Virus record (IMG/VR): IMGVR_UViG_3300030328_000938
Span: 1-60,294 of that record
Reading direction: 5' to 3' (one strand)
Origin: a virus
Lineage: Duplodnaviria; Caudoviricetes
DNA: 60,294 bases
The position numbers and the translations under genes are program-made. The notes under the pieces are model-generated. The model was not told the DNA's origin and did no database searches. It saw nothing but the letters and a program-made list of their open reading frames with translations. This document shows, piece after piece, positions 29,608-58,367 of this stretch (its first letter is position 1; each line of letters opens with the position of its first letter).

Positions 29608-30028
29608 TGAAGCAAAGGATAAGTTTCCAGACTATGAGTTCTATCTTGTAGGTTCTCTGACTAGAAATAATCCAAAGCCAAACGATATTGATATTGGAAT
29701 AATCCCACCCAAAGGGAGAGCTATGTTAAGTGCATGGGAAAAGGTATTAGAATTTTTTCATAATAAAAAGATAGATAATTTAAGAGTAGATGCTCAAATA
29801 GTACCTGCTTATAGAAGGTTGTTTAGATTAAGTGGACAGGCAGTTAAGCAACTAGCTAATAGTAAAATTTATAGATATGTTTACCATACTGAAATTCCAC
29901 CAAACAAATTAAATACAAAATACTCAAGAGCTTGTGGTAATCTCTGGAGAAAGAAAGTAAATGTAGTCTCTGATAAATATAAAGCAAGAGGATTGCTTGG
30001 TATGGAGTTTACGAATAGGAGATTATAA
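29588..30028 (+). CDS. Minimal nucleotidyltransferase (Pol-beta superfamily)
   Basis: FYLVGSLTR...NDIDIGII...VDAQI gives GS-x-DxD...D; start more likely 29588 than 29468; TAATG-coupled to the next gene. Confidence 0.75.
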   Translation: MTQALVNEAKDKFPDYEFYLVGSLTRNNPKPNDIDIGIIPPKGRAMLSAWEKVLEFFHNKKIDNLRVDAQIVPAYRRLFRLSGQAVKQLANSKIYRYVYHTEIPPNKLNTKYSRACGNLWRKKVNVVSDKYKARGLLGMEFTNRRL

Positions 30029-31173
30029 TGGCTAAAAAATCAGTAATAAATCCAGGAAAATTTCATTTAGGATATGCATTTGACTTCCCTCCTTATCAGA
30101 ATGAGGAGTATAATGAAGAACATGAAATAAAACAATTAAGATGGAAATCTTCTTGTGTTATGAATAGAAGAGCATATGTAGGCAATGTTAAGATTACAGA
30201 ATACGATGGAACTACTTACACTTTATCTGATTCTGTTTTTAAGTCTAGGACTAATAAGTTTGATTCATTTACCAAAACTAGAAGAATTGATGTAGCAGTT
30301 GGGGACGGAGAAGATATTATTGCATTAGCAGGTTTTGCTGATATGCTTCTTCAGTTTAAACAAACTACATTACACATTATTAATTGTGCAGGAGCATCTG
30401 AGTTCTTAGAAGGTACTTATAAATTTAAAGGAGTTGAACATCCAGCCTCTGTATGTAGTACTGACTTTGGGATTGCTTGGGCAAATAAACATGGAGTATT
30501 TTTCTTTGATGGAAGACAAGTTGAAGATTGCTTTATTAAAAGAGGCGTAAGAAGAATTAAGCCTTCTACATGGTCTACTTTCGCAGGTTCTGATATTTTA
30601 AGAGTTGGCTATCTCCCAGACGAAAGACTCATAATGGTTATCAATGATGATGGAGATACATTTATATATGATATGACTACTAAGTCTTTTACTCAAGGAA
30701 AAACACGAATTAGCGTACATGAAAAGACAAACTTAATTAATATATGGGATGGTACTCTAGTTCTAGGTTCAAATGATGGAACTGGTGATGAGGACTTAGA
30801 TGTTAAACCTATTGAGGCTGTTTCAAGTGCTACTGATAGTGGTAATTTTTATCTCTTAACAAGGCAAGTAGATGGGACATCTCCTACTCAAGAGAAGAAA
30901 TGGAAGAAAGTTTATGTAACATATAGAAACGCAGGTTCGGCTAAAGTAGAATTATCTTATAAAGGCATTAGTAAGAAGGATGGAGAAAGTGCTTTTATTC
31001 CTGTTACTGAGGCTTTTGAAAATAGTGGAAATTGGGAAACAACAGGATTTAAAATTGGTACAAATGCCTATACTATGCAAATTGAAATAAAGCCTAAGTC
31101 TGGTCAACAGATACCTTACAATTTTGAAATTAATGATATAACATTGGTCTATAGAGATAAGAGTGTAAAGTAA
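30028..31173 (+). CDS. Tail tubular/stabilisation (nozzle-like) protein, C-terminal part
   Basis: RAYVGNV, GIAWANKHGVFFFDG beta-propeller-like blades, KKWKKVYVTY, FEINDITLVYR. Confidence 0.7.
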   Translation: MAKKSVINPGKFHLGYAFDFPPYQNEEYNEEHEIKQLRWKSSCVMNRRAYVGNVKITEYDGTTYTLSDSVFKSRTNKFDSFTKTRRIDVAVGDGEDIIALAGFADMLLQFKQTTLHIINCAGASEFLEGTYKFKGVEHPASVCSTDFGIAWANKHGVFFFDGRQVEDCFIKRGVRRIKPSTWSTFAGSDILRVGYLPDERLIMVINDDGDTFIYDMTTKSFTQGKTRISVHEKTNLINIWDGTLVLGSNDGTGDEDLDVKPIEAVSSATDSGNFYLLTRQVDGTSPTQEKKWKKVYVTYRNAGSAKVELSYKGISKKDGESAFIPVTEAFENSGNWETTGFKIGTNAYTMQIEIKPKSGQQIPYNFEINDITLVYRDKSVK

Positions 31174-39859: not shown

Positions 39860-41620
39860 ATGGCTGCAGCACAAGTATTACAAGCACTTAATATGATTCT
39901 AGACGACAGGTCTAGGAGAGAACAAAGAGATGTTCAATCTTCATTGGGAGCTATGGAATTAGCATTGAAAGAAAAGAAGATGGAAGAAGATGCTATTCAT
40001 AGAAGGTTTAGTAGAAAGAAAGCATTAGTTGAAACCGAAGATGCATTGAAAACATCTAAGGCGAAAAGAGGTCAAATAGCTCAATCAATAAGAACAAGTA
40101 GAACTGTTGAAGAAAAGAACAGACAAGATATATTCTTAAAGGCTTGGGAGGGTATGAACGAATCATACGAAGAGTCTCAAATGATGTTAGCTAATCAGAT
40201 ATGGTCAGACTTTGGCTTTTCTGCACTATGGACATATATGGAAGTAGGTGAAGGTAAGCCAGTTACTGTTTCAAACATGACTAGACTTCGTACACATCTA
40301 GAAAAGAATGGAATGGATAAGGCATCTGCTCAGTTTATTACTAAGAAGGTTGCTCAAATTGGAGCGCAGGAAAAGAAACCTGCTTCAACTGTTATTGGTC
40401 TAGGTCGTTTTGTTAGGAATAGATTAGTTTCAATACAAAATTTAAAAGGCAATGAGAAGAATCAAAAATTAAAAGACTTTGTTGACGCTGGTTATAATGT
40501 TGGCATCTTTACAGACCCTTTCAATTCTGAGTATAGCAATAAGCAGGAAATGGTTGAAAAGAACATGGGATTGATGAATGATATAGGTAAGCTAAATAAG
40601 ATAGCAGTATTAGATGATATTAAAGCCAAGCTAACTCAAGAGAGATATGAAATGTCTTATCAAGATGATGATTCTTCTACAACATCAGATGAGGAACTTG
40701 GAATTAGATATGAGTTTCAGAATGATAATAGGAATAAAATTAATAATAGTCTTCGAGGCTTTGGTGAGCAATTAACTCAAGAAGAAAAAGACCAGAATAA
40801 AAAAGTATATACCAAAAGAGAAATAGAGGAGGCACAAAATAAGTATTGGTCACAAATTCGTGCAGGTTCACAATGGGTTGATAACTTTAGAAATCTGAAG
40901 TCAGAAGCTCAAGATGAATTAAGAGCAAGTGGTGACTTAGGATACGCCCAGTCAGTTGAAGGAGTACTTGGACCGACAGGTACAAACATAACTTCTCTAC
41001 CTAATCTTCAATTAACACTACCTACTAATATGGTAGGAAAGACTCCTAATGAGATAGAAAACTATTGGGAGAATATGAGAGGAGGCGTAGATGCAGAGTT
41101 GTTTAAAGTCCAAACTGCAATACAAAACCATAATGCTGAAACATCTGCTATTGCTACTAATCTTGCTAATATGAGACAATCAGGTATAAGTGTTACAAAT
41201 GCAGAAGAATTAACAAGGCAAGATGAAAAAAGAAATATTGATTTATATAGGCTTCAAGAACAACAAAGAGCATTAGAGAATTGGATGAGCAATCTAAATA
41301 AAACAATGTCTGCAATACCAGTAGATGAATCACATGGTTTGTCTTCATTGCCTTATAAAGATATTAATCAAGACCAAAAACAACAAAGATATGATGAACT
41401 CGCTCTTAGGCAAATGAATCCTATTGGTAATGTTTTAATGGATTGGTTCGGAGGGACATCTGAGGAACAAAGATTTGATAAGGTAAATACTTCTAACGAT
41501 GAGAAATATGTAGACCCTATGGGAGATGGTTTAGACCCTATTAAGAAGAAGAAAACTGATGATTTAAAGTTAAATACTATGAAATGGAATATGATATTTA
41601 GAGGTTTAGGAGGGTACTAA
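39860..41620 (+). CDS. Putative internal virion protein
   Basis: Helical 586 aa, coupled to the giant gene. Confidence 0.5.
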   Translation: MAAAQVLQALNMILDDRSRREQRDVQSSLGAMELALKEKKMEEDAIHRRFSRKKALVETEDALKTSKAKRGQIAQSIRTSRTVEEKNRQDIFLKAWEGMNESYEESQMMLANQIWSDFGFSALWTYMEVGEGKPVTVSNMTRLRTHLEKNGMDKASAQFITKKVAQIGAQEKKPASTVIGLGRFVRNRLVSIQNLKGNEKNQKLKDFVDAGYNVGIFTDPFNSEYSNKQEMVEKNMGLMNDIGKLNKIAVLDDIKAKLTQERYEMSYQDDDSSTTSDEELGIRYEFQNDNRNKINNSLRGFGEQLTQEEKDQNKKVYTKREIEEAQNKYWSQIRAGSQWVDNFRNLKSEAQDELRASGDLGYAQSVEGVLGPTGTNITSLPNLQLTLPTNMVGKTPNEIENYWENMRGGVDAELFKVQTAIQNHNAETSAIATNLANMRQSGISVTNAEELTRQDEKRNIDLYRLQEQQRALENWMSNLNKTMSAIPVDESHGLSSLPYKDINQDQKQQRYDELALRQMNPIGNVLMDWFGGTSEEQRFDKVNTSNDEKYVDPMGDGLDPIKKKKTDDLKLNTMKWNMIFRGLGGY

Positions 41621-44600
41621 TGGCTGAGAATATGTTATTCGGGAAAAGTCTAGAGCAATTCTTAGATGAAGAATTAAAAGGAATTAATACATCAACAGAG
41701 TATGCAGACCCTTCAGGGGGAGCATCAGGTATAGTAAGTGATAGTCAGTATCGAGGAAGAGGTGCTGTTCCTTCTCCTATGGTAACAGATAGAGAGCCTT
41801 TTATAGATACTAATAATTTATTTGCTCAATTACAACATGAACCTGAACATTTCCCAGCTCACCTAAGACCTGATTCAGATAAGTCTATGATGGCTCATTT
41901 AGGAAGAGGTATTGTATCAGCTTTAGACTCAGCTAGTATGAATGTTGGTAGATTATTTATCCCGGGTAAAGGCTCGGTTGCTGAAACCTTGCCTGATATG
42001 TTTGAGAGTGGAAAACTTGATTGGTTAAAGAGTGATAACTCTTGGCAAACTAAAGTATCTGACTCTCTTGGTGAAACTGTCGGTTTTCTAGGTTCATTTT
42101 CAATAGCAGGTGCGGCAGAGAAAGCAATTATAAAGAATATCCCTAGAGTAGGTTCTAAATCTATTGCAAAAAGCATAAAGAAAAAGGTTGCAGACCAACT
42201 TGAAAAAGGTGGACAGATAAAATGGATGTCCAATCAGGGTACTACGAAAGCAGAAAGAGAACTTTTAACCGAGGCTAGTGCAAAGTCTACATTTCAAAAG
42301 ATATATAAAGATGTATGGGATACACCTTTGTCTAATTATTCTCATGGATTTAGAAATGCATCTAAGCAAAACTCATTTAAACAAAAGGTTGAAGCAGGAT
42401 TTGCAGACGAATTTAATAAAGTATTAAATCAGAATGGTCTTGAGGCTTCAGATGACTTAGCTAAACTTGTAGGCGATGAATTTATGAGGTGGTATGGTAA
42501 GAATACTAAGCCTCCTGTAAGTGATATAGCTACTGCTATTCAAAGAATAATGGCTAAAGGTGGATTGCCCGGCTTGTCTAACCCAGCTTTTGGTGCGGCA
42601 GTAGGTGTAATTGGTCAAGAGGCTATTACATTCTCAATGGTTGAAATGTTAATGGAAGCAGTACAAGCGACAGATGAAGAAAGAGAAGCACATATAGGAG
42701 ATGTTGGTTTTCACGCGGCAGGTATGGGTATGTTACTTGGTGGTATAAGACTTATTCCGGGTGGTAAAACAAAGGCTAATACATTATTTCCTAATCCTTT
42801 TGGTGGCAAAGATGGTGGATTTTCTATGTTTAGAAAGCTAATCTTAGGAAGGAAACCATATAAAGGTAGAGTTGATTTCACAAAAAATTCAGAAAGAATG
42901 GCATTATTAAATGTTTGGGAGTATCTATCTAGTAGGAATCTAGGTACTGGTGCTTTAGGAAAGATAATGCAAGACTCTGCAAAGAGACATAAGCATCATT
43001 TAAATAAAGTTTTTGGAGGAAGAACAGGAAAGAACTCTACTAAAGTACATGATTATACTCTTAAAGAACTAGAAGCAGTTCTTAATCAATCTGGCTCTGG
43101 CATAAGAATGATTAATGGAAAGAAAGTAAATCAGAAAGAGGCTATAGCAGAGATAATGGCTGATGCATTAGATGATGTATATTCACAGTTTAGAGGAAGG
43201 TGGGTAAAAGATTTCTTTAGAGAGTACGCTACTGATTTTACAATGTCAACTCCTAGAATGTTATTAGGTTCTATGGCTATGGGAGGCGGTCCGAAGATGT
43301 TGGTAGACCCTGATATTCCTTTTGAAGACAAAGTACTTGGCTTTGGTCTTGGTGGCTTTATGATGAAGAGAGGTAAGTCCCTTAAGTATTACAATAAAAA
43401 GGGACAGGCAATGGAACATGAAGGATGGATAGGTGGAAAAAGAAAAGAATTTTATTCTAAGTCAAAATTAGGTGAATCTCATTTAAAAGAATTATCCTCA
43501 ACAATGAAACTTATGGGTGCTAATCCTAAAGAGCATTGGCATTGGGGAAATATGGCTGACAATTTAGATATAGACCCTCGTATGCCGTGGGTTTCTAGCT
43601 TTAAGGATACAGAGACTAGAGAGAGTAGTAAGGTTAGAGAAGAGTTTCTTAGAGAAGAAAATGGTAAGCGTGTCTACACAACAGAGAAAGAACCGGGAGA
43701 GAAGCAGATAAGAAAAGAAGGTAAGAATGACCCCGGTGACCATATTAAAAAATTATACAAGCACTTCGTTGTTTACTCAGGGAATAAGCACTTTCAACAT
43801 CATGTAGAAGGTAAAGAACAATTCGTAAAGGATTGGGAACATCTAACAAGTAAAGAGAAGAAGCAGTTTGAGAAAAATATGGAAGACGCTGGTATTAGGG
43901 AAGTAAATGACTTTCTTGATGTGATGATGGAAACTAAGATGGCAGGTCTTGACCAAACAGCTATAGAGGTTGCAAGTAATCTTCGTAATGCTGTTGAGCA
44001 ATTACAGAAAGTATTACCTGAGGGTAGTAAGCGTTTGATGAAAGTTATTGAGGGTGATAGATTAAAATTTGTAAGACTCGACTCTAGAAGAGATGGTGAC
44101 TCTAAATTAACTACAGACCAAGCTAATATGATTGAGAGATATAATTCTTATGTCGAGTTCTTAGTTAGGTCAGGTAAGGCTGAATTAATAAACAGAAGTC
44201 CTTCCGATATTGGAACTATCATAGATTCAAAAACTCCTGGCGTTAAAGAATTTATGACACAGATGGAAGCAACTCATATAGGATTCAATAAGGCATTTGG
44301 TGGTAGAGAAGGTGAAATTCTTCTAGAGCCAACAGATGGTGTTTTTATTGATTACCATAGATTTGCAATGATGCATAAGAATGTTAAAATGGGAAGTGCT
44401 TTTTTATCTTCAATCTTTGAATCAGGTTACAAAACAAAGCATCAATTTAATAAACAAGAATTACAAAAAGCTGGGGAGTTAATTCGAGAGATATTCCAAT
44501 CCGAAAAAGGATTTCCAATACAAAAAATTGAGGCAGGTAAAGGTCAGCAACTATTTGCTGAGACTATGCTTGAAGTTTTAAAGCCTTACTTGGCTACTCC

Positions 44601-47600
44601 TACTCCAGTTAAAGGTGGGGAGTTTACTGGTAATAGAAGTGGTGCTAAGTGGAGAGAAAAGATAAAGACACTAGACTTAATACTTCAAAAGAATGGTGTT
44701 ACTTTAGTGGGGGACAGGTATCAAAATGTTAGGATGGATTTCATTGCTAATATGAGAAGAGAGTCTTTGATTCACAAAATAAGACATGGAAATGTTTTCA
44801 ACCCAAAGACAGGTAAGATTGAAAAAATAAATGCTGGTCATGTCGAACAAGTTGTTGCATTGGTTGAAGATGGATTTGTTAATAAAGATATGACATTGCA
44901 TAATGTTACTGATATTATGGATGGTCTTGGTAGAATGAAAGCTGACCCTAGACAAAGACTATTTGTTGATTGGGCAAATGAAAGATTAAATCTTAGAGAA
45001 CTAGATACTCCAAAGAAATTTAATGAAAAGGTTGCTCGTGAATATGGATTAGTAGAAAAACCTGAAAGCGTTAAGCAGTTATTTGAGAACCTTGAGCAGT
45101 CAGCTCAGAGTATGGTTACTGAAGGTAATGTAAAGAATATAAAGGAAGCTAGACAGCGTATAACTGAATCATGGGGAGATGTTCTGCATCTATATAAAGA
45201 TGTTGTTATGCCACTTGTAAAGACTACTAGGGTGATTAATGGTAAAAATGTTACATCTGGTATATTGAATCTAGATAAGAGTCAAAATCAAGCTAGAGAT
45301 ATAGGGGACTTATGGTCTATAACTCATAAGTTAAAATTGTTACAGAAAAAGAAGACTAGTTATAGTGTTGAAAAATTTATGGAAAAGATAAAGGAAGTCT
45401 CTCAAGACCCTAAGTCTGAATACTATGAAATATTAAACTTTGCATTAGAAGAGATAGCAATCAATCCTAATAATAGTCAAAGAGTAATGGAGTTAGCTCA
45501 AAGACATCTTAAGTATAAACCTGAGACTAATGAATTTGAGATGAAGTCTGAAACTCCTACAAGAAATATAGAAGAGTTTATTGAAGGTTTATCAAGACCT
45601 GAGTGGGGCGGTAAGGAACATATGGAAGCTCACTTCAGGCAGTATCAAAGAAGATTGCAAGAACAAAGTGCAGATGGTGGATATAAAACTGAATCACTAT
45701 CTGATATTGTAAAGAAAAATGCTCTTTATGATATGAGCTTTTCAGAAGGTGGAACTGTCCAGAGAAAGCATCCTACATTAACTGTTGAGAAGCAGATTCA
45801 AAATATGTATGATAAGTATACTGGTATGGGTAAGAGGGAGCAATTTAAAAAAGAACTTATACAACAAGCCGAGCAAAAGAATCCTGAGTTGGATGTTGTG
45901 GAGTTTGGTGAGAAAATGGATTCATTATTTCTTCAGTTGGATTCATCTATAAGAGTTACTAAGCAAAAAATTAATTTACAAGACCAACATAAATGGACAA
46001 GAGATGATAACCATGCTATAAGAAAAACTAGCGTATGGGATATAATGCACTCAGCTATTGGTTCTCCTATGGGTAAGAGAAATTTCCTACCTCAAATAAC
46101 AATGATTGACCAACAGATTATTAATGCTAATGGAAGAAAGTCTTCTTTAAGTAATAATGCTGAACTGGTTAATGAGCATCTATATAATGGAGACAGGGTT
46201 AATGTTAGAGAAAGTGCTAAGATAGCAGAAGGAAAGGGAGCAAAAGACCTTATAACTGAACCTGAACAAAGAGTTCTTTATAGGTTTGGCTCTAATCAAT
46301 ATGGATATGGTGTCAAAGCAGATACTAAGTCTTTGAATAGATTGGCTAATAGATACGCAGAGTATGTAATAAACAATGTTAAGAGTAAGGAAGCTCAAAC
46401 TGAAATTCTTGCAGAAGCTGGTGTTAGGTACAATGAAAAAACTAAGATGTATGAGGTAAATAGAGATGTAGATAATAACTATGTCGTAGAAAATATAGCC
46501 TCAGGTAATAGAGATTTCGTCAAAAGAGTTATGGATGATATGATTTATGGTGAGCTATGGGGACAAAGTTATTGGAATGAGATGAGAGCTTACGATACTC
46601 AAAGTAAAACAGATTGGCATAAGAGACTTAATTTATATAATAATGTATCTACTATTAAGTTAAGAACAGATAGCATTATGGATATATATAAAAGAAGGCA
46701 ATCTAGTGGGTTATATAAAAACGCAGAAGGACTTAGAGCTAACGAATCATTAAGAAAGTGGGCATCTGGTGATTACAGGCAGATGACAATAAGAGATGAG
46801 AAGGGTGGTTTTGATTCAATATTTAAAACTATTCAAAAACAACATGAACTAGAGATAGGGAAGCTACCTGATGGTGCTAAAAGAGATGCATTAGTTTCAG
46901 AGTATAATCAAATTAAAGATTTGCTTTCTGATAAAAGTAAATTCGATGGAATGACTATACTTAGAGATGAGTTGTTTGATGGTATGGCTAGTTTAATGGG
47001 TGCTTCAGGAGAGGGAGTTGGAGCTATAAAGCCTATAGTTATGAGAATAGGTGAACAACATTTTATTAATAAGACTGCATTTCAAAAGGATGCTACTTTA
47101 AAAGCAATGTGGGAAGCTAACCCTAACTTAGGTTCTATAACTTTTACTAGTGCAAGTAAAACTGTTATGAAGGATGGGAAGTATCACGAGTGGATGGAGA
47201 ATAGAATATTTGATGCTCCAGCAGACTTTAATCTACTTGCTATAGAGCCTTCCATGTATGGTAAAGGCATAGGCATAACTATGAAGCCTGAAGATGTTCA
47301 GCTACTTAGTGTTAAAGCAGAGAAGAAAAAGGCAACACTTAGTCCATTGCATACATCTGGTATGACTAGAGAAGGGCAGAGACAATTTATAGAAACTCAT
47401 GTAGAAAGAAAATATGATTTAGCTGAAAAAGATATTAATTCTCTTTACAATCCTCAGCAATTTAGTCAAGCAGTTGCATTTAATAGGGCGAACTTCCACG
47501 ATATGTATCAGGGAATGACTCTTGAAAGTAGCACAATGGGAGTACATCAAATGTTGGCTGAGGTTGGTGCTATTCCTCATATTTTTCAAGGTAAACAATT

Positions 47601-50600
47601 TGATAACATGATTAAAAAGAGACTTATTGATGATATTATATCATTGAAAGTTGATGGAGTATCAGCAGTAGTATCACCAGATGCTACAGGTGAATTGAAA
47701 TCTAGTATAATGTATAGTGAAGGAGGTAGAAGTAAAATTGCAGAGATTGGAGAATTAAAGCTCCCTCGTTATGCAAAAGATATGCCTTTCGATAGTAAAT
47801 TAACATCTGTTGTCCTTAAGTCTAGGAAAGATTTAAGTGTTGATGTGACTACTAAAGATATGAAAACAGTTCAAGAGATGGGATGGAAAGACCTTAACAC
47901 TCTTGGCGAATTACATTTCTTTGCTAACCAAAAAGGTTATGATGTATTAGTTGCATTAGAAAGAAACCCACATACTAAGCCAGACTCAGCTACTATACTA
48001 AGACTGCACAGCTTCAAGTCTAAGACCGATGGTGCAAACGCTACTGTTAATGCTGTTGACTTTAGAAGAGCGCAGGAAGGTGACCATGATTTAGATACAT
48101 CATCTTTTTATTGGGATACTGGCAATGAGGTTAGAAACTCTTATCTTAAACAAAGAGGTACTGTTCCTGATTCTGTTCCTACTGGAAGTAAGAATAATAA
48201 ATGGTCTACAAATGATATTGATGTGAATACAACCTCAGGACACGACAAGTATTTATCTAATGTTGAAAAAGGTGATATGTTAAAAGGTAAGGTTATGTCT
48301 TACCAACCTGTTATAGATGCATTAGAACATTATGTAGGTGCGAAAAAAGCAAATTCATCAGGCAATGAAACTATTATAAGAGTTGGTGCTGATTCATATA
48401 TAAAATTTAATGCTGATAAATTAGTTCAAATAAGACAACGACTTAGTAATGATATTCAAGGAATACTAGATGCTAAGGGTGGATTTGATGAGGCTATGTA
48501 TAGAAATTGGGAGAATAATTTCTTATTTGGCGAAGCTAATGGGCAACAACAAAGTGTTTTTAGTTACGCTAACAAGTCAGATACTAGAATGAAAGATGTC
48601 TATCAAGATGGAGGGTTTGTTAGTAATCCAGTACATCAAAGAATAATTAGAGACTTATTAATTACTCCTTATAGAGAATTTTCTAGACTAACATCAGGTA
48701 ATTGGGAAACAGGTGTGAGAGAAAGTGTTGGGATGGCTGAGTTTATGACTGGAGTTGAGTTGTATAATTCTAGATTAAGACGCTCTAAAGATAAAGTAAA
48801 AGAAATTATTAGAGAAGAATATGAAGGTCAGCAAAAAAGAGATGAATTAGATGCCATAGAGACTGGCTTTTTTGATGGTGGATTAACAAAGCAAATGCAA
48901 ATTTTAAGTAAGAACTATAGAGCAGAGCTAGACCATCTTACATCAAGAGATAGGCAGATGAGAAAAGCATACAAGCTAATGGAAAAGTCTAAGGTTATGG
49001 GTAATCTAGATAGGCGTAATCACGAAGCAGAATGGATGGACCAGGTATATAGTTGGTCTGGTAATTCAAATGTTCAGAACTTTTGGAGAGAACATAATTC
49101 TCATATGCAATCAAATGCTCAGAAGATTGAGTATGTTAGTTGGTTAACTTCAAAGCATAGAGATTTAGTTAAGCTAAGAAAAAATATAGTTCGTGAAGGT
49201 GACTTGATAGCCGCGAAGTCTTATGATAGGCAGATAGCAAATGTTAGAGAGATGAAAGATAGAGCATTAGGTGAGATGCAATATAAGTTTGACATGGATG
49301 GAAAGTTTTATAAGAAAAGTTGGAACAAAGATAGTCAGCAATTTGAATGGAAAAAATCTAAGCCTAAGGGAAAGAATAAAAAGAAGCAAAAACTATGGGA
49401 AGATATTATTCAGCATAAAAAAGATGCTATGAAGTGGGAATATATTCGCAAGATAAAGGGTAAAGAAGAGAGATTTAAAGCTGCGGCTAAGTTTGAGAGG
49501 AACTGGGAAAAGAAACATAGAAAGCAAGTCTATGAAGATTTACAAAAGAATGGTGTTCACTTCACCGATGTAAAAGACTTTGAAGCAGTACAAGCTCTCA
49601 TATTCCATGATGTATTTAGCTCTAAGGCTAATATGGAATTATTTGAAACAGGTAGTGGAAGTTTTGGCTCTAAGGATTTTCAAAACATATCCTATACTGC
49701 TACTAAAGCCGCGAAGAGAATAAATAAGATGATTAATAAGGCTTGGAGTGACTTCCTAGACCCTAAGAATGATAGGTATCCTAATCAAGAATTTGTAAAT
49801 GAACAAATATTTAGAGAAATAGAACATAGATATAATAATTTTGCAGAACAAAATAGCTTACTTGCTGAACAATTTTTATATAAGATTGCTACTCCTGAGA
49901 TAGATATATCTAGAAGAATGAGAATAGGGGAGAATTATTACCCAGCAGTTAAAGAGGGTAATCATCAGACACAAATAAATGCAGTTATGAAATTCATAAT
50001 GCACCCTGAAAGTCCATACACTCCTGAAATGAAAAGACAAATATTTCAAGATATAGCAGATGCATCAGGCAGGTCTTTCTTAGACTACTATGGAGTTACA
50101 TCGAATCAGGCTTTCAATGGTGGAGAACTAAGATTAAGTCCAAGTGGTAAGATGTTGGAGTATGGAGGTAGGGATTATTATGGTGATGTAGCTACTACAA
50201 TAAAAGACAAGGTATTGTTTTATGATAGACCTAATCCTTTTCAGTATGGAAGAGGTGGAACAGTTAAGGATTTACTATATGAGATGTCTCCTCAAGTAGC
50301 ACAGCAATTAGAATTAGATGGTTTAAGTAAGCTATCTCAATATGATTCAATGAGAATGTTGTACGGAATGGGTTCAGTAAGAGATATTGTGGCAAATAGA
50401 AATTTAAGTTTCATACCTCAAGGAATGACAAGAACTAAAAACGGAGCATATTACTCAATAAATGGATACAAGGATTATCTTAGGCAGATGGATATAGAAA
50501 TGAGTGGTGTTGTTGGTAACAATAGAACAAGTATGTGGAGAGAAGGTCCGATGAACAATATTAATTTAAAAGAACCTGCTACTAAGCAAAAAAAGGCACA

Positions 50601-50649
50601 AGAAAGCGTATTAGAGTTTATGAATAATTGTCCAGAGGGATTACAATAA
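41620..50649 (+). CDS. Giant internal virion protein with a probable two-barrel (double-psi beta-barrel) RNA polymerase domain
   Basis: FDG...GAIKP...SASK, then ERNP (47959-47970) and EGDHDLD (48076-48096), in the order of RxP...DxDxD in two-barrel polymerases. Confidence 0.7.
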   Translation: MAENMLFGKSLEQFLDEELKGINTSTEYADPSGGASGIVSDSQYRGRGAVPSPMVTDREPFIDTNNLFAQLQHEPEHFPAHLRPDSDKSMMAHLGRGIVSALDSASMNVGRLFIPGKGSVAETLPDMFESGKLDWLKSDNSWQTKVSDSLGETVGFLGSFSIAGAAEKAIIKNIPRVGSKSIAKSIKKKVADQLEKGGQIKWMSNQGTTKAERELLTEASAKSTFQKIYKDVWDTPLSNYSHGFRNASKQNSFKQKVEAGFADEFNKVLNQNGLEASDDLAKLVGDEFMRWYGKNTKPPVSDIATAIQRIMAKGGLPGLSNPAFGAAVGVIGQEAITFSMVEMLMEAVQATDEEREAHIGDVGFHAAGMGMLLGGIRLIPGGKTKANTLFPNPFGGKDGGFSMFRKLILGRKPYKGRVDFTKNSERMALLNVWEYLSSRNLGTGALGKIMQDSAKRHKHHLNKVFGGRTGKNSTKVHDYTLKELEAVLNQSGSGIRMINGKKVNQKEAIAEIMADALDDVYSQFRGRWVKDFFREYATDFTMSTPRMLLGSMAMGGGPKMLVDPDIPFEDKVLGFGLGGFMMKRGKSLKYYNKKGQAMEHEGWIGGKRKEFYSKSKLGESHLKELSSTMKLMGANPKEHWHWGNMADNLDIDPRMPWVSSFKDTETRESSKVREEFLREENGKRVYTTEKEPGEKQIRKEGKNDPGDHIKKLYKHFVVYSGNKHFQHHVEGKEQFVKDWEHLTSKEKKQFEKNMEDAGIREVNDFLDVMMETKMAGLDQTAIEVASNLRNAVEQLQKVLPEGSKRLMKVIEGDRLKFVRLDSRRDGDSKLTTDQANMIERYNSYVEFLVRSGKAELINRSPSDIGTIIDSKTPGVKEFMTQMEATHIGFNKAFGGREGEILLEPTDGVFIDYHRFAMMHKNVKMGSAFLSSIFESGYKTKHQFNKQELQKAGELIREIFQSEKGFPIQKIEAGKGQQLFAETMLEVLKPYLATPTPVKGGEFTGNRSGAKWREKIKTLDLILQKNGVTLVGDRYQNVRMDFIANMRRESLIHKIRHGNVFNPKTGKIEKINAGHVEQVVALVEDGFVNKDMTLHNVTDIMDGLGRMKADPRQRLFVDWANERLNLRELDTPKKFNEKVAREYGLVEKPESVKQLFENLEQSAQSMVTEGNVKNIKEARQRITESWGDVLHLYKDVVMPLVKTTRVINGKNVTSGILNLDKSQNQARDIGDLWSITHKLKLLQKKKTSYSVEKFMEKIKEVSQDPKSEYYEILNFALEEIAINPNNSQRVMELAQRHLKYKPETNEFEMKSETPTRNIEEFIEGLSRPEWGGKEHMEAHFRQYQRRLQEQSADGGYKTESLSDIVKKNALYDMSFSEGGTVQRKHPTLTVEKQIQNMYDKYTGMGKREQFKKELIQQAEQKNPELDVVEFGEKMDSLFLQLDSSIRVTKQKINLQDQHKWTRDDNHAIRKTSVWDIMHSAIGSPMGKRNFLPQITMIDQQIINANGRKSSLSNNAELVNEHLYNGDRVNVRESAKIAEGKGAKDLITEPEQRVLYRFGSNQYGYGVKADTKSLNRLANRYAEYVINNVKSKEAQTEILAEAGVRYNEKTKMYEVNRDVDNNYVVENIASGNRDFVKRVMDDMIYGELWGQSYWNEMRAYDTQSKTDWHKRLNLYNNVSTIKLRTDSIMDIYKRRQSSGLYKNAEGLRANESLRKWASGDYRQMTIRDEKGGFDSIFKTIQKQHELEIGKLPDGAKRDALVSEYNQIKDLLSDKSKFDGMTILRDELFDGMASLMGASGEGVGAIKPIVMRIGEQHFINKTAFQKDATLKAMWEANPNLGSITFTSASKTVMKDGKYHEWMENRIFDAPADFNLLAIEPSMYGKGIGITMKPEDVQLLSVKAEKKKATLSPLHTSGMTREGQRQFIETHVERKYDLAEKDINSLYNPQQFSQAVAFNRANFHDMYQGMTLESSTMGVHQMLAEVGAIPHIFQGKQFDNMIKKRLIDDIISLKVDGVSAVVSPDATGELKSSIMYSEGGRSKIAEIGELKLPRYAKDMPFDSKLTSVVLKSRKDLSVDVTTKDMKTVQEMGWKDLNTLGELHFFANQKGYDVLVALERNPHTKPDSATILRLHSFKSKTDGANATVNAVDFRRAQEGDHDLDTSSFYWDTGNEVRNSYLKQRGTVPDSVPTGSKNNKWSTNDIDVNTTSGHDKYLSNVEKGDMLKGKVMSYQPVIDALEHYVGAKKANSSGNETIIRVGADSYIKFNADKLVQIRQRLSNDIQGILDAKGGFDEAMYRNWENNFLFGEANGQQQSVFSYANKSDTRMKDVYQDGGFVSNPVHQRIIRDLLITPYREFSRLTSGNWETGVRESVGMAEFMTGVELYNSRLRRSKDKVKEIIREEYEGQQKRDELDAIETGFFDGGLTKQMQILSKNYRAELDHLTSRDRQMRKAYKLMEKSKVMGNLDRRNHEAEWMDQVYSWSGNSNVQNFWREHNSHMQSNAQKIEYVSWLTSKHRDLVKLRKNIVREGDLIAAKSYDRQIANVREMKDRALGEMQYKFDMDGKFYKKSWNKDSQQFEWKKSKPKGKNKKKQKLWEDIIQHKKDAMKWEYIRKIKGKEERFKAAAKFERNWEKKHRKQVYEDLQKNGVHFTDVKDFEAVQALIFHDVFSSKANMELFETGSGSFGSKDFQNISYTATKAAKRINKMINKAWSDFLDPKNDRYPNQEFVNEQIFREIEHRYNNFAEQNSLLAEQFLYKIATPEIDISRRMRIGENYYPAVKEGNHQTQINAVMKFIMHPESPYTPEMKRQIFQDIADASGRSFLDYYGVTSNQAFNGGELRLSPSGKMLEYGGRDYYGDVATTIKDKVLFYDRPNPFQYGRGGTVKDLLYEMSPQVAQQLELDGLSKLSQYDSMRMLYGMGSVRDIVANRNLSFIPQGMTRTKNGAYYSINGYKDYLRQMDIEMSGVVGNNRTSMWREGPMNNINLKEPATKQKKAQESVLEFMNNCPEGLQ

Positions 50650-53345
50650 TGGCAAAATTAAAAATATGTATTCCAAAGAACGCAGCGAACCCTGAAAGAT
50701 TAAAGTCTCTATATAAGATTGCTAAAGAATATGATGGGCATAGAGCCGTTGAACAATTTGGATTAGGAGATGGTCAGTTTAAGAAGCTATACAAAGCCTC
50801 AACTGGACATCACTTTGGTGAAGCAATACCTTCTGTTGAACAATTAAAATTATTAAATAAACAGGTTCAGCAGTTCACTAGTAAACTTGAAAAGGGCAAT
50901 ATAAGTGCTGCGGAAAGTTTGTTCTATCTACCTAAAGAACTAGCTGAAAGATTTCCTGCGTCAGGTCAATGGTATAAAGAATCACAAAGGTCACTTCAGC
51001 ATTTCAAGGGAAACACTCAAGCATTTCAACAGATGGCTAATGATATATCCAGATTACTCAGTCGGGAGGCAGGAGAAGGTGGTATAACACGCCTACTAGG
51101 CAGAGGGATGTCAGCTAATAGAGAGATAGCAATGAGGGAAGCTGAATATAGAAAATTAGTAAATGAAGGTAGGATGGATGATGCTTTATTATATAAACAA
51201 ACTAAAATTGAACCATATATAAAAGAAGGTGAGGGTTTAGTATTTAAACAATTCCATGATTTAGTAACTGCTGATAAGATTGATTCGGCTATGGCAAGTA
51301 AATACCCGGGAAAAGTAGTTGAAGCCGCGAAGATATGGAGAGAACAGATGATGCCAAGACTAGATAAGATGCTAGTCAATGGTATAGCTAACTATAAATA
51401 TGGCTTTAAAAGGACTAAGGGAACATTTGGTGATGATGTTGGCTTTGGTGAGATGGGTAAAAAAATAGAGATTATTGAATCATACATCAATAAAATGGTT
51501 AAAAAAGGTGGTGGATTCCCTATAAAAAATTTAGATATAGTTCCAACATTAGGTAAAACCTCTGAATTGTATCATACTGGTACAAAAGAATCAATGAGAG
51601 AAGCAAATGAATTACTTGATAGCTTAGTAAAGAATGTTGTAGAAAGCGATATAAACATTAACAATGTAATGAGAAGTGGAGATGGTGCTAAAGGTGAAAT
51701 ATCATACAATATAATAGACGCTATAGATAGCTATACTAGGTCTGTTTCTAGATTTAATATGGTATCTGGTCAAACTAATGCTTATTTAAAAGGTATTCGT
51801 GGAATGAAGAATATGGCAGAGAAGGTAAGTGATGCTGATTTACAAGCAGGTGTTGACTCTATGGTTGAATATATGGCTGATTCTTATTCACATAATGTTG
51901 GGTTAAGTAATTCTCAGGTAGGTAGTAAAATAGCAAGAGCATTAACTAGTTGGCAGGCTATTGGTAAAATGGGATTTCCTAACTTAAGAACTCCTGTTAG
52001 AAATGCTGGTCAGTATTTGCAAAATGTAGTTTGGTTTGGATTTAAAGGTATGAGGGATTTAAAATCAGAATTACAGAATACTCGAATGTTAAATAGGGTG
52101 AATGAAGGACTTGCTGATAATGGTATACTATTTCCTGAGATAACAGAGATTTATCAGAACTATGCACCTAAAAGAAAAAGAGATGATGCTACTGGATTAT
52201 ATATGGAAGATGTCTCTTTAGGAGCTTCTGATTTTGTACTAGGTGGATTAGAAAAGATAGCAAAAGCAGTTAATAAGCCAATGACTGAAATTGAGAACAA
52301 TCTTAATAGGCGTACAACATTTCAGCTTGGATATATAAAAGAATGGAAAGCTCAATCACAAGCTCTTGATTATCATATGAAAAACTTTGAAAGAAAAGTT
52401 ATGAATAATCCAAAAAAATATGGTGTCACTAAGGATAATCCAATAGAAGCATTAAGGAAAGAAAAATTACCATTACATGATGAGATGGTAGATGCTTACG
52501 ATTACCACTTTGAGCAGTATCGTAAAAAAATGGCTACCAATGTAGCAAATGAAACTGTTGTAGAATTACATTATGACTATGATGCCTCTGCTAAGCCTAG
52601 AATAATGAGAGGAGCAACTGGTTCAGTAGCAACTCAGTTTCAAACATTTTCAGTAAACTTTTTTAATTATCAAAGAAAGATAATAAATAATGGTACAAAT
52701 GAAATAATGGCTGGAATGTGGGGAGGTGAGAACGCTTGGAGAATGTATAGATTAGGTAGTCTATATTTAGGAATATCAGGATTAAGTGCTATTACAAATA
52801 CTGACTTAACTGGTTTAGTTAATAATGATACATATGAAAGATTAACTCAATGGTATAAATATGCTAATGGTGATAAAGAAGATAGAGAAAGAGCTATGTT
52901 TGGAAGAGGTATTAGTACCTTAGCTGGTCCAACTATTAGTGACGCTGTTAGATTAGGTCAGATAGCAGGATTTATGCAAATGGATGAAGATGATTGGAAA
53001 AGTTATATGTTTGGATATGGTGATTTTGCTTCAGCTACAGATGATGATAAAACTAAAGAATTAGTAAGAACATTGAATGTAGGTATGGGTAGGATGGTTT
53101 ATGGTCATATGCCAAGAATGATTAATGGTGCTAATTTAAGTTCTCATATTGGATTAGAGTTTGGCTTATATAATAGCAAGGAAAATAAAAAGAGACAAGA
53201 ATGGGTTCAAGGAAGTAAATATTCTCCATTAAAGTGGGTATATGATAAATGGAAGAAACCTACTAAGAAACAGCAGAAACTTGCTAAAGGAAGAAGAGAG
53301 CCAGTTATGGCTACACTAGATGCAATGGAAAGAGGTTTCATATAG
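50649..53345 (+). CDS. Large putative internal virion protein
   Basis: TAATG-coupled start at 50649; HYDY...QFQTF pattern resembles large phage ejection proteins. Confidence 0.55.
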   Translation: MAKLKICIPKNAANPERLKSLYKIAKEYDGHRAVEQFGLGDGQFKKLYKASTGHHFGEAIPSVEQLKLLNKQVQQFTSKLEKGNISAAESLFYLPKELAERFPASGQWYKESQRSLQHFKGNTQAFQQMANDISRLLSREAGEGGITRLLGRGMSANREIAMREAEYRKLVNEGRMDDALLYKQTKIEPYIKEGEGLVFKQFHDLVTADKIDSAMASKYPGKVVEAAKIWREQMMPRLDKMLVNGIANYKYGFKRTKGTFGDDVGFGEMGKKIEIIESYINKMVKKGGGFPIKNLDIVPTLGKTSELYHTGTKESMREANELLDSLVKNVVESDININNVMRSGDGAKGEISYNIIDAIDSYTRSVSRFNMVSGQTNAYLKGIRGMKNMAEKVSDADLQAGVDSMVEYMADSYSHNVGLSNSQVGSKIARALTSWQAIGKMGFPNLRTPVRNAGQYLQNVVWFGFKGMRDLKSELQNTRMLNRVNEGLADNGILFPEITEIYQNYAPKRKRDDATGLYMEDVSLGASDFVLGGLEKIAKAVNKPMTEIENNLNRRTTFQLGYIKEWKAQSQALDYHMKNFERKVMNNPKKYGVTKDNPIEALRKEKLPLHDEMVDAYDYHFEQYRKKMATNVANETVVELHYDYDASAKPRIMRGATGSVATQFQTFSVNFFNYQRKIINNGTNEIMAGMWGGENAWRMYRLGSLYLGISGLSAITNTDLTGLVNNDTYERLTQWYKYANGDKEDRERAMFGRGISTLAGPTISDAVRLGQIAGFMQMDEDDWKSYMFGYGDFASATDDDKTKELVRTLNVGMGRMVYGHMPRMINGANLSSHIGLEFGLYNSKENKKRQEWVQGSKYSPLKWVYDKWKKPTKKQQKLAKGRREPVMATLDAMERGFI

Positions 53346-53405
53346 AAGGAGAGAGGTCTGACCTTTTTCATAGCTCTCAGGTACCAGTAGCTATTACTCC
53401 CCTTC
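53345..53405. terminator. Branched stem-loop at the convergence of the two arms
   Basis: GAAGG/CCTTC closing stem; inner AGGT/ACCT and ATAGCT/AGCTAT hairpins. Confidence 0.45.
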
Positions 53406-53430
53406 CATACTCATCGTAACCTAATTAAGG

Positions 53431-53643
53431 TCAATTCCATCCATTATTTTTATGGTACATTTTAATTTCATCAAATGTTGGTAGTCCACTTTTTTCAATT
53501 TGCCTTTTCGCATCATTAACTTGGTCTTCCATCATTTTCATTCCTGTTATTAAATCCATAAATTTCAATTTTCTTTCTTCAGGCAAGTTTAAATATTTTC
53601 TTATCTTTTTTGTTTCTCTTATAGATTCTTTTTTGGATACCAT
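53431..53643 (-). CDS. Hypothetical protein
   Basis: ATG at 53643 with AGGAGAGG RBS. Confidence 0.55.
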   Translation of the reverse strand: MVSKKESIRETKKIRKYLNLPEERKLKFMDLITGMKMMEDQVNDAKRQIEKSGLPTFDEIKMYHKNNGWN

Positions 53644-54098
53644 TGTTCCTCTCCTATTCCTTTGTCGATATACCATTGTCCTATGCATATCGCATCTGCA
53701 TTTTGTAAGGTCACCTTAACCCTACCTTCTGATATTTCCATTGCTTTCTGTTTCAAGAAGTTCTTCCTGTCTTTCTTGTCTTTAGGTACATCTTTCCAAT
53801 TAGCCTGCCACATCTTAGGTGGTACTAACATCGTCTCTTTAGATGCAGTTGCTAACATTCCATTCCACATTCCATAATTATATCCAAATTTGAAAGTACT
53901 AGCCACTCCTTGTCCGGGCATACTATGTACCCATTCTAAAACTGCTATACTTGCTCTATGAATATCCTTTCCACATAACTCCCAAGTCTCCGTTGATGTT
54001 GGCATACACTTATGAGTTGTAATTAATTGTCCATCTGTGAATACTGCCATTGCTCCTGACCAACCGGGGTCTATAGCTATAACTGTTCCTTTCATCAT
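53619..54098 (-). CDS. RuvC-like Holliday junction resolvase
   Basis: IAIDPG, LEWVH, STFKFG, NADAICI. Confidence 0.85.
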   Translation of the reverse strand: MMKGTVIAIDPGWSGAMAVFTDGQLITTHKCMPTSTETWELCGKDIHRASIAVLEWVHSMPGQGVASTFKFGYNYGMWNGMLATASKETMLVPPKMWQANWKDVPKDKKDRKNFLKQKAMEISEGRVKVTLQNADAICIGQWYIDKGIGEEQWYPKKNL

Positions 54099-54298
54099 AT
54101 TAATTCTCCTTTGAAGATATTTATAATATCTGCGACAATTCCTTTTGGTTCATATCCTGCATATCTTGATTTTCTATACTTGCAACCTTTGTTGAATGTA
54201 TCCTTTGGTATTATTCTAGGATATTCAAACCAATTACATTTATTGCCACTTCTTAAAGAACACCCTGCACAAGTCGTAAACTCCTTTACCTTCTGCAC
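54095..54298 (-). CDS. Small Cys-rich protein
   Basis: CAGC...C...GC. Confidence 0.55.
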   Translation of the reverse strand: MQKVKEFTTCAGCSLRSGNKCNWFEYPRIIPKDTFNKGCKYRKSRYAGYEPKGIVADIINIFKGELI

Positions 54299-54310
54299 AG
54301 GGTGACCTAT

Positions 54311-55648: not shown

Positions 55649-55650
55649 TC

Positions 55651-56472
55651 CTAAAATAGACTAGCTTGAATACTAGCTGGTTCGTAGTTAGTAATTACCA
55701 ATTCGTTCTTTACATCCTTTGCGAATAATTGTCCTGCATATCTACACGGTATTTTATGTATATTATATTCTTTAAAAGCATCTGTAACTTCCTTCCTGTC
55801 ATCATAAGAAACCATAAAGTTACCACCTGATTGGTGTATGGTGTGACATAAATTTACGAAATCTTCATGGTCTTTCTCATTAAAATCGTAAAAGTAGTAG
55901 TCTTTCCTTTCCCCTGCAATTACATATGGAGGGTCTAAGTACCAAAAATCAGTTTCTTTAATAGGGTATCTTGTAGGTAAGTCTCTGAAGTCCAAATTTT
56001 CTATCATTACATTGTCTAATGCTTTCCTAGAATACTCAAGGTCTTTCAACATATTAACATTCCAATCTGCTTGTTTGGCAATAGGATTATTAAAATTGTT
56101 ATTGAAAGCACACTTTATTACATAATAGTAAACTGCTGCTCGCTTAGGGTCTGGTAATTCAAATGTTTTATCTTGTAATTCCTTTCTATATCTGTCAAAT
56201 AGTTCTCTTGATTTAACTAGCCATTTAGCATAGTCGCAAAACTCTTCATAATGTCCACCAACACTCAAATATAGATTGACAACATCATTATCTTTATCAT
56301 TTAGTACATTCTCTTTTACCTTCTGTTTGCGAAAGAACATAGAGGCACCTCCTGCGAATACCTCTATGTATCTCTCATGGTCTGGTATCATTGGTACTAA
56401 TTGTCTAGATAATTCAAATTTACCACCCATATAAGGAATGATGACTGGACATTGTAGCCATCTAAAATCCAT
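55651..56472 (-). CDS. dam: D12-class N6-adenine DNA methyltransferase (Dam-like)
   Basis: YMGGK, EVFAGG, DPPY, ELVITNY; start at 56472 is TAATG-coupled. Confidence 0.9.
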   Translation of the reverse strand: MDFRWLQCPVIIPYMGGKFELSRQLVPMIPDHERYIEVFAGGASMFFRKQKVKENVLNDKDNDVVNLYLSVGGHYEEFCDYAKWLVKSRELFDRYRKELQDKTFELPDPKRAAVYYYVIKCAFNNNFNNPIAKQADWNVNMLKDLEYSRKALDNVMIENLDFRDLPTRYPIKETDFWYLDPPYVIAGERKDYYFYDFNEKDHEDFVNLCHTIHQSGGNFMVSYDDRKEVTDAFKEYNIHKIPCRYAGQLFAKDVKNELVITNYEPASIQASLF

Positions 56473-58186: not shown

Positions 58187-58367
58187 AAGCAGTCTCCTTT
58201 TCTCTAATATCTTTCTGAATTTTCTTTAAATCTTTTAAGAGTGCTTCGTAAGGCTTCTTCCATCTACCATTATCTTCTGTTGGTACTTGGGTACTACAAG
58301 TCATAACTAGACTATTGATTAATATTTCCAATTCACCTGTTGAATATTTTATTTGAACAGTACTCAT
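58104..58367 (-). CDS. Hypothetical protein
   Basis: AAGGAG RBS; coupled. Confidence 0.55.
   Translation of the reverse strand: MSTVQIKYSTGELEILINSLVMTCSTQVPTEDNGRWKKPYEALLKDLKKIQKDIREKETAYEKQQETEQYGTQNPQECNVKGQATCD

Follow-up and report, generated by a model that had tools for sequence, protein, structure and literature searches.

The giant open reading frame

The DNA analysed here, called the window, is the complete 60,294-nt stretch of the IMG/VR virus record IMGVR_UViG_3300030328_000938 (Duplodnaviria; Caudoviricetes), a linear record rated 100% complete by CheckV. The plus strand of the window carries at 41620..50649 a giant open reading frame (ORF), a single unbroken frame of 3009 aa plus stop, the middle part of which probably forms a single-chain RNA polymerase (RNAP) of the two-barrel type. 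The ATG of the ORF overlaps the stop codon of the upstream gene (TAATG) and is preceded by GGAGGG a few bases 5'. An initial annotation described the product as a virion protein with a divergent two-barrel RNAP active site, and inspection of the sequence showed the ORF and all of the quoted motifs in place: KFDG at residue 1774 (nt 46939-46950), GAIKP at residue 1801 (nt 47020-47034), SASK at residue 1844 (nt 47149-47160), LERNPH at residue 2113 (nt 47956-47973) and, 39 residues past the latter, QEGDHDLD at residue 2152 (nt 48073-48096). DHDLD (residues 2155-2159, nt 48082..48096) is the sole DxDxD in the protein and holds the presumed Mg2+-binding triad D2155, D2157 and D2159. It starts 37 residues after the [RK]xP element R2115-N-P2117 (nt 47962..47970).

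The bare motifs are at chance level. With 6.15% Asp, 0.7 DxDxD are expected by chance in a protein of this length, and shuffling the 3009-aa protein produced DxDxD in 951 of 2000 shuffles. The spaced pattern [RK]xP-x(20-100)-DxDxD, which corresponds to the search pattern used in PMC10770324, appeared in 333 of 2000. Their conservation is beyond chance, and the case for a polymerase therefore rests on conservation and fold. Pfam searches with the giant protein returned only a sub-threshold LRAT match (E 0.17), and the PHROGs gave no match.

Conservation of the putative active site

A word-indexed search with residues 1700-2300 as the query gave 5155 candidates, among which ten proteins were retained at E<=1e-3; the non-self ones have lengths of 2830-3185 aa and identities of 30-42%. 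Tara labels, which point to a marine origin, are attached to some of them. When residues 1601-2500 were searched exhaustively with HMMER through 1.84 billion cluster representatives, 50 proteins matched at E<=1e-3, of which 24 reached E<=1e-10 and 10 reached E<=1e-30. Two alignments were built from these proteins. Alignment A1 contains ten full-length sequences, the members being 24-34% identical to the window protein. Alignment A2 has 43 rows, comprising the window fragment, the nine non-self proteins of the word-indexed search and 33 of 47 further HMMER proteins; the 14 left out are fragments or partial proteins of 131-865 aa. Two short fragments in A2 (P0026 and P0028) end before the catalytic site, leaving 41 rows that can be scored there.

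In A1, the stretch E2114-RNPHTKPDS-2123 and the three aspartates D2155, D2157 and D2159 are invariant, as are G1801, I1803, K1804, P1805, K1818-TAF, K1823, D1824, F1842-T-S1844 and K1847 in the part that corresponds to the first barrel. KFDG itself is variable, with only the adjoining S1773 invariant there. The three aspartates, whose conservation in homologues the initial annotation had singled out as decisive, are Asp in all 41 rows of A2 that reach the site. P2117 and D2147 are likewise kept in 41/41 rows, R2115 is Arg in 38/41, and K1804, K1818 and K1847 are Lys in 40/40. The active-site residues (the Asp triad, P2117 and the three lysines) are retained down to ~16-20% identity.

The residues between the aspartates vary. 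The loop variants in A2 are DYDID (12 rows), DHDLD (9), DFDID (7), DYDVD (3) and DYDTD (3), with seven others in one row each. Position 4 of the loop is Gly in 0/41 rows and is occupied instead by I, L, V, T, S, Y, F or M. Scans of IMG/VR yielded 9 loci with A1, 89 relatives with the subclade alignment A4 (the best 80 of these 89 are covered here) and 43 with alignment A5; single-protein scans for the wider family with P0040 and P0023 gave nothing, and no stretch of A2 was sufficiently conserved to scan with. This makes 126 loci in all, with 17 contigs counted twice and about 109 distinct. Their loops are DYDAD (46), DYDVD (26), DFDID (16), DYDID (14), DFDVD (5), DYDFD (2), DYDYD (2) and DHDLD (1), so that position 4 is A, V, I, F, Y or L. 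ORF calls required a stop codon and missed ORFs cut by contig ends, which accounts for most of the 14/126 loci without the motif. DFDID, present within the family, is the exact loop of gp66, the virion RNAP of phi14:2, a crAss-like phage.

The three most conserved 100-residue stretches of the whole protein are 501-600, 1801-1900 and 2101-2200. Residues 501-600 have a conservation of 0.54 and belong to a Gly-rich, moderately hydrophobic helical module (residues ~311-620, nt 42550..43479) that was delimited by conservation and hydrophobicity. This module has hydrophobic windows at 323-348 and 362-380, and P380, M547, G550, G578 and G585 are invariant in alignment A3. An N-terminal module as conserved as the active site, in a protein two thirds of which is non-polymerase, would suit a protein acting mainly in ejection or as part of an internal core, in which a polymerase-derived domain no longer makes RNA and instead clamps DNA, for instance, or acts as a translocation device drawing the genome in. 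The departure of the catalytic loop from the cellular DFDGD (H and L) fits such a loss of activity, and the DFDID loop of gp66 was reported to adopt in the crystal a conformation unable to bind Mg2+ (10.1101/2020.03.07.982082). However, retention of the Asp triad and P2117 in every row, with the lysines and, nearly always, the arginine, down to ~16% identity is the pattern of a working active site. Moreover, gp66, for which a non-Gly position 4 is likewise described, is reported to be packed in the virion, to transcribe the early genes and to require each Asp of DFDID (10.1101/2020.03.07.982082). An inactive polymerase-derived domain is thus quite unlikely.

Predicted fold of the core

An AlphaFold2 model of residues 1601-2500 (model residue 1 is residue 1601), computed with A2, has a mean predicted local distance difference test score (pLDDT) of 82.8 and a predicted template-modelling score (pTM) of 0.85. 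The model shows two domains of the double-psi beta-barrel (DPBB) type forming one core, a feature of the two-barrel superfamily that is present here at the level of a confident AlphaFold model. The polymerase core as delimited by the model, by Foldseek against the PDB and the viral model library BFVD, and by VIA-align (VIA) comprises residues 1631-2463 (nt 46510..49008). The first, beta-like barrel spans residues ~1778-1906 (nt 46951..47337), with strands at model residues 178-306, and its assignment comes entirely from whole-core alignments and the strand pattern. It carries the conserved basic residues expected of a beta-like barrel, K1804 (in GAIKP), K1818 (in NKTAF) and K1847 (in SASK), which are putative equivalents of the beta-subunit lysines. 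A helical connector (residues ~1917-2007, nt 47368..47640; helices at model residues 317-407) joins it to the second, beta-prime-like barrel (residues ~2010-2164, nt 47647..48111), which was located by VIA on model residues 409-583 and by hhalign. In the predicted layout, R-x-P lies at a strand end and the loop leading into the last strand of this catalytic barrel holds DHDLD, giving the DxDxD loop with preceding [RK]xP that typifies the superfamily. Long helices follow the catalytic barrel at model residues 605-637, 665-683 and 737-801, a putative bridge helix/trigger loop region.

Foldseek comparisons of the model with the PDB gave phi14:2 gp66 (6vr4_A) as the top match (E 4.1e-9), followed by QDE-1 chains (6.7e-6 to 6e-5), maize RDR2 (7e-5) and the largest subunits of Pol I, II, III and V, which start at about 1e-3. 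VIA comparisons with 48,161 representative chains ranked QDE-1 highest (Z 15.8, r.m.s.d. of 5.3 over 483 aligned residues, model 38-864 to QDE-1 646-1186), with RDR2 at Z 14.0, P74-26 gp62 at 13.7, P23-45 gp96 at 11.9, human Pol I at 11.2 and gp66 at 10.1. The gp66 alignment is the longest, with 623 residues (model 31-863 to gp66 863-1814), and the alignments to QDE-1 and gp66 both continue past the catalytic barrel to model residue ~864. The structural alignments to QDE-1 and RDR2 have 11-13% identity. The catalytic barrel alone (model 409-583) superimposes on Sulfolobus RNAP A' with Z 10.3 and an r.m.s.d. of 2.3 over 107 aligned residues, and designed DPBB proteins align to model 411-567 with Z 8.2-8.8 (7dww, Z 8.8). 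Thus, the divergent single-chain two-barrel RNAP of the initial annotation is borne out by the model and its best matches (gp66, QDE-1, RDR2 and the Thermus-phage RNAPs), which include gp66 and QDE-1, two of the three enzymes (the third being YonO) that had been named for comparison. From the model and the conserved residues, the core would be catalytically active on a DNA template.

In BFVD, 34 entries matched the core model at E<=1e-3. The leaders are two unnamed UniProt viral entries (E 3.6e-42 and 1.8e-27; template-modelling scores of 0.78 and 0.72), followed by more unnamed viral entries, with giant proteins from numerous crAss-like phages starting at rank 5 and the phi14:2 protein at rank 32. 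A right-hand polymerase of the T7 type, as in phage N4, was considered for the core and rejected, the core being predicted as two-barrel and no T7-type RNAP match being found in Pfam or PHROG. Other entries matched by the model include an uncharacterised Microcystis phage MaMV-DC protein (E 6.2e-4) and proteins from uncultured Podoviridae and Siphoviridae that bear the label 'RNA dependent RNA polymerase'. According to these BFVD matches, two-barrel enzymes may occur in further phage groups.

At the sequence level, profile comparisons gave a borderline similarity to gp66 and its relatives. The alignment of A2 with gp66 by hhalign places R-x-P...EGDxDxD opposite RIP...GSDFDID, with the presumed triad of the window protein in register with gp66 1361-DFDID-1365. 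The family core aligned to a seven-sequence profile of crAss RNAP cores with a probability of 71.4% and E 3.6e-5, compared with E 0.69 and 0.8 for column-reversed controls. The confident block of this alignment at default settings comprises residues 1979-2162, the catalytic barrel only. The three lysines fall opposite the first-barrel region of the crAss RNAPs in hhalign. The enzyme is in the same broad clade as the single-chain phage and RNA-interference polymerases and is not a sequence-recognisable orthologue of gp66. A tblastn search with the gp66 core matched 120 of 50,697 phage records, and the best 30 of these 120 are Crassvirales or phages of Bacteroides, Flavobacterium and Cellulophaga.

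N- and C-terminal arms

The N-terminal region (residues 1-1630, nt 41620..46509) is mostly helical and has no recognised fold in structure searches with a model of residues 1-1200. The best VIA matches of this model (Z 6.4-6.7) are four-helix membrane proteins of the Tim22/Tim17 type covering residues ~300-620 and are below the noise level of the tool. The Gly-rich hydrophobic helices at 320-620 and these sub-threshold Tim22-like matches together give a hint, and not more, of membrane insertion. An N4 match in the N-terminal Foldseek search (9pnq, E 0.46) is noise. A look-up of residues 80-640 in the Atlas gave viral hypothetical clusters; the leads scoring below 0.9 (LPD22, LPD14 and P22 gp16) were not relied on. 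The C-terminal region (residues 2464-3009, nt 49009..50646) shows scattered invariant residues in A1 up to C3004. Comparisons by hhalign of residues 1-1630 with gp66 1-870 (E 0.37) and of residues 2450-end with gp66 1801-2180 (E 0.29) showed no similarity, both with single-sequence templates and hence low power.

Gene order and spread of the family

TAATG start/stop overlaps join the giant gene to both neighbours, a 586-aa gene upstream (39860..41620, plus strand) and a ~900-aa gene downstream (50649..53345, plus strand; the ORF finder placed its start at TTG 50628). From these overlaps, the giant gene is predicted to be translationally coupled to both. The giant gene is co-oriented with the genes for TerS, TerL, portal, capsid and tail fibres and with a 381-aa gene (30028..31173, plus strand) whose product has weak similarity to an 'internal virion protein' (phrog_511, E 1e-4). 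The plus-strand block 5809-53345 begins with TerS, exonuclease, TerL, endolysin, a P22-like portal and a SU10-type capsid protein, continues with collagen-like and other tail fibres, spanin and the 381-aa protein, and ends with proteins of 1713, 708, 185, 169 and 586 aa, the giant protein and the ~900-aa protein.

The position of the gene bears on whether the enzyme is packaged. An active two-barrel RNAP could be left out of the virion and transcribe middle or late genes, as P23-45 gp64 does, with the host RNAP starting the infection. The presence among the best structural matches of P74-26 gp62, which we take to be the counterpart of the non-virion gp64, agrees with this. However, the gene is deep in the structural operon and coupled to its neighbours, and so late an enzyme could act only on the next host. 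In addition, a protein of 3009 aa with long arms resembles the virion proteins gp66, P23-45 gp96 and N4 gp50 rather than the compact gp64. A non-virion enzyme is accordingly an unlikely, though the least unlikely, alternative to a virion-borne one.

The family is found on >100 IMG/VR contigs of up to ~57 kb, save two of 72 and 85 kb, and 98 of the 126 loci have an ORF of 2511-3181 aa. The nine closest loci share the order of a 548-aa gene, a 381-aa gene, a 1713-aa or 97-aa gene, a 400-590-aa gene, a ~170-aa gene, a 410-599-aa gene, the giant gene and the ~900-aa gene, after which a convergent resolvase-DnaB-methylase block follows; in one of them (L009) the contig stops within the giant ORF. 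The 400-590-aa gene resembles the 708-aa protein of the window in most of these loci. The 410-599-aa gene holds the place of the 586-aa gene, with BLASTP similarity only in L003 and L011, and the 586-aa protein itself has no family match in Pfam or PHROG. A homologue of the 381-aa protein was found in 85/126 loci. A homologue of the ~900-aa protein lies directly 3' of the giant gene in 86/86 loci with at least 2.8 kb downstream. The ~900-aa protein has no match in Pfam or among PDB sequences, matches PHROG families of unknown function only, and falls in viral hypothetical clusters of the Atlas. By analogy with gp65 in phi14:2 it may be a partner of the polymerase, here without HExxH. For the 905-, 1713-, 708- and 586-aa neighbours, no PDB-sequence match was better than E 0.2.

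Some further features of these loci were noted. In most of the less closely related loci (L004-L010), a 97-aa protein that matches just a short part of the 1713-aa protein (31173-36314; 49-70 aligned residues) takes its place, and this slot of the operon is highly variable in size. An Atlas cluster near the ~900-aa protein has LPD39 (a 'large polyvalent protein' domain) in 28% of its members. A 186-aa ORF in the structural operon (29468-30028) matches a nucleotidyltransferase domain (PF01909, E 8e-5).

The phage genome and its probable host

The minus-strand block (53431-60294 and 1-5838, ~12.7 kb) encodes a resolvase, a DnaB helicase, a Dam-type methylase, a DUF932 protein, a Sak-like annealing protein, a PD-(D/E)XK nuclease and many small ORFs. 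The genome therefore lacks a crAss-type replication module, as the initial annotation had stated, with only DnaB, nucleases, the Sak-like annealing protein, the resolvase and the Dam-type methylase present. Pfam and PHROG annotation of the whole 60,294-nt genome found no DNA polymerase, other RNAP or sigma factor; a faint primase match lies in ORF 6824-7915 (phrog_47, E 6e-4). Thus no clear primase or DNA polymerase was found, though the genome is rated complete.

This gap could be filled if the core had another product or template, that is, if it were an RNA-templated enzyme like QDE-1 and RDR2, primase-like, or a PolD-like DNA polymerase replacing the missing DNA polymerase or primase. QDE-1 and RDR2 indeed have the top VIA scores. 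However, QDE-1-like enzymes and gp66 are both reported to transcribe single-stranded DNA well, and PolD is absent from the best 50 VIA and the best 50 Foldseek matches. Many small phages use the host replisome, and the gene sits among structural genes rather than in the replication block. Such a role is very unlikely.

Shine-Dalgarno (SD)-like tetramers occur 4-20 nt 5' of 34/58 window ORFs (background 9.5%), compared with 4/44 coding sequences of phi14:2 (background 6.8%). The 126 loci have a median SD fraction of 0.5 and a median guanine-cytosine content of 31% (27-37%). Bacteroidota make little use of SD sites, and the host is therefore probably not a member of the Bacteroidota. A scan of 185,579 prokaryote genomes with A1 found no copy of the family. 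Sites of the Bacteroidota type TAnnTTTG number six in intergenic regions and form no convincing promoter family. No tRNA genes were found in the genome, and the window has no Rfam match.

Several other features of the genome were observed. Two 28-nt direct repeats (4918-4945 and 4965-4992, 47 nt apart) are intergenic and upstream of the minus-strand gene 4565-4831; both contain AAGTRGTACAATTA on the gene strand, and the genome has no further exact copy of the motif. In the minus-strand block, amid tight packing, the interval 3910-4403 has ~490 nt without an ORF of at least 40 aa on the gene strand and without an Rfam match, and is a candidate regulatory region, origin or RNA. The Sak-like annealing-protein gene (1-357, minus strand) runs off position 1, and at the opposite end of the record an open frame comes in at 60014-60292 (minus strand). 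The sequence probably represents a permuted circle that was opened within this gene; the frames at its two ends are 2 nt out of phase, with no exact join.

Proposed mode of action

The most probable explanation is that the giant gene encodes a three-part protein of a 60-kb podovirus-type phage, in which residues 1631-2463 form a single-chain two-barrel DNA-dependent RNAP that is borne by the virion and transcribes the early genes. In catalysis, the second barrel would hold Mg2+ through D2155, D2157 and D2159, with R2115-x-P2117 before the triad, while K1804, K1818 and K1847 of the first barrel would serve the site of the nucleotide and the RNA 3' end. The helical connector would link the barrels as in gp66 and QDE-1. 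The giant gene, next to last in the structural operon, would be expressed late, and its product would be packed in the capsid as cargo and leave through the tail partly unfolded, before or with the DNA. After entry, the protein would refold and transcribe the early and replication genes of the ~12.7-kb minus-strand block before any phage protein is made. The N-terminal part, with its Gly-rich hydrophobic helices, and the C-terminal part may serve packaging and passage through the envelope. This course of events is proposed because of the analogy with gp66, with the crAss001 cargo proteins and with the tape-measure-fused gp96. Injection with the virion is plausible from the gene position, the translational coupling and the analogy; from the last we infer packaging, ejection and the identity of the transcribed genes. 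The polymerase core in the middle of the giant protein suggests that the phages of this large group carry a transcription enzyme of their own into the host.

Several results weigh against this explanation. BLASTP of the whole giant protein with gp66 gave nothing, searches of PDB sequences with the A1 and A2 profiles gave no RNAP at E<=10, and tblastn of the window core against the 50,697 phage records gave 0 matches at E<=1e-3, so that no cultured carrier was found. The hhalign comparison of A2 with gp66 alone gave only a marginal similarity (E 0.0088, probability 4.6%), and the sequence similarity to the characterised polymerases is marginal. We know of no precedent among characterised enzymes for His at position 2 of the loop. 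The model of residues 1-1200 is poor (pLDDT 63.7, pTM 0.41) and Foldseek with it gave nothing at E<=0.001; with these 1200 residues poorly modelled and unmatched, the ejection role is a conjecture. The late timing of expression is read from gene order only. A repeat search showed no repeated promoter-like element in the presumed early region, and a sigma-70 promoter scan of 50000-60294 gave 41 sites compared with 43.1 expected and no promoter family; this chance-level count is neutral on transcription by the host. The motif of the 28-nt repeats, with at most two mismatches, gave 5 matches compared with 2.24 expected and no promoter family.

The lack of BLAST similarity to gp66, the absence of tblastn matches and the borderline profile similarity, confined to the catalytic barrel, mark the protein as a lineage distinct from the crAss enzymes, in agreement with the suggestion of the initial annotation that it may be a distinct virion RNAP lineage. 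Its reading of the His and Leu of the catalytic loop as the mark of this lineage did not hold, since in the alignment DHDLD is a peculiarity of the window's own subclade (9/41 rows of A2). A bolder version of the preferred reading, which we regard as possible but doubtful, is that the family is a third independently recognisable lineage of virion-borne two-barrel RNAPs, after the Crassvirales and the Thermus P23-45 group, carried on >100 low-GC contigs (~50-60 kb) of uncultured phages, in which one polypeptide of ~340 kDa combines a membrane-inserting ejection module with a polymerase. If so, a single protein would open the envelope and then, by transcribing the incoming genome, initiate and perhaps drive its entry. 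With a DNA polymerase and a clear primase missing from these genomes, the transcripts of the enzyme might then also prime replication.

The kind of enzyme is already known; the family itself, with its carrier phages and loop variants, appears to be new. No paper describing the family outside the Crassvirales was found in full-text literature searches, and it may already be included among the 23 families of two-barrel enzymes aligned in PMC10770324. Giant transcription proteins of the two-barrel type have been regarded as a hallmark that distinguishes the crAss-like phages from other phages (PMC7886860). With the present family, an enzyme of this kind would occur in a group of podoviruses that are much smaller, structurally unrelated and common in viral metagenomes, with hosts that are probably not Bacteroidota. 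It would broaden the set of phages known to transcribe their early genes independently of the host, add a deep branch to the debate on the kinship of phage, plasmid and eukaryotic RNA-interference polymerases, and assign a predicted function to the largest gene of >100 so far unannotated viral contigs. The loops DHDLD, DYDAD, DYDVD and DFDID form a natural series for testing Mg2+ binding by a non-glycine loop.

Comparison with known systems

The closest parallel is phi14:2 gp66 (PDB 6VR4). Like the window core, gp66 is a single chain with both DPBB barrels and a helical connector, and it has the R-x-P...D-aromatic-D-aliphatic-D loop with a non-Gly position 4 that is found in the window family. 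A connector of ~140 residues is described at the same place between the barrels of gp66 and QDE-1 (10.1101/2020.03.07.982082). Both gp66 and the window protein are giant and have large non-catalytic arms, the N-terminal arm being 1630 aa in the window protein compared with ~860 aa in gp66. Both genes lie at the distal end of the structural block and are followed by another large conserved gene. The RNAP proteins of crAss001 are reported to be capsid cargo that must partly unfold to exit (PMC10172136).

The phages themselves differ. The window phage has a genome of 60 kb compared with ~100 kb for the crAss-type carrier, and, as judged from its TerL, portal and capsid proteins, it is not crAss-like. 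These belong to phrog_38, phrog_156 and phrog_1328, with the Pfam families P22_portal and SU10_MCP, whereas those of phi14:2 belong to phrog_6681, phrog_6547 and phrog_11589. BLASTP of the three protein pairs of the two phages showed no similarity. Comparison of 20 phi14:2 proteins of the virion and RNAP block (including gp65 and gp67) with the 58 window ORFs gave a sole match of 29 residues (E 0.003), which is not meaningful. Gp65 bears a zincin, whereas the neighbours of the window giant gene lack HExxH.

QDE-1 and RDR2, the eukaryotic RNA-interference polymerases with the highest overall structural scores, are also single-chain two-barrel enzymes with a connector. In contrast to the window protein, they are cellular, ~1000-1400 aa long and without a virion context. 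P23-45 gp96 and P74-26 gp62 are phage single-chain two-barrel RNAPs like the window core, and searches of PDB sequences with the A1 and A2 profiles showed no sequence similarity of the family to the P23-45 and P74-26 enzymes. In P23-45 gp96 the RNAP is fused to the tape measure protein and is thought to couple DNA entry to pre-early transcription (PMC10770324). However, gp96 has DFDGD and is a tape-measure fusion of a siphovirus, whereas the window phage has a P22-like portal and Pfam and PHROG annotation found no tape measure protein.

The gp50 protein of N4 (Schitoviridae) has a similar layout, with a central polymerase between N- and C-terminal arms. It is reported to be a capsid-packed protein of ~3500 aa that is expelled into the cell and transcribes the early genes (PMC13434306). 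However, the polymerase of gp50 has the T7-like right-hand fold, whereas the window core is predicted to be of the two-barrel type.

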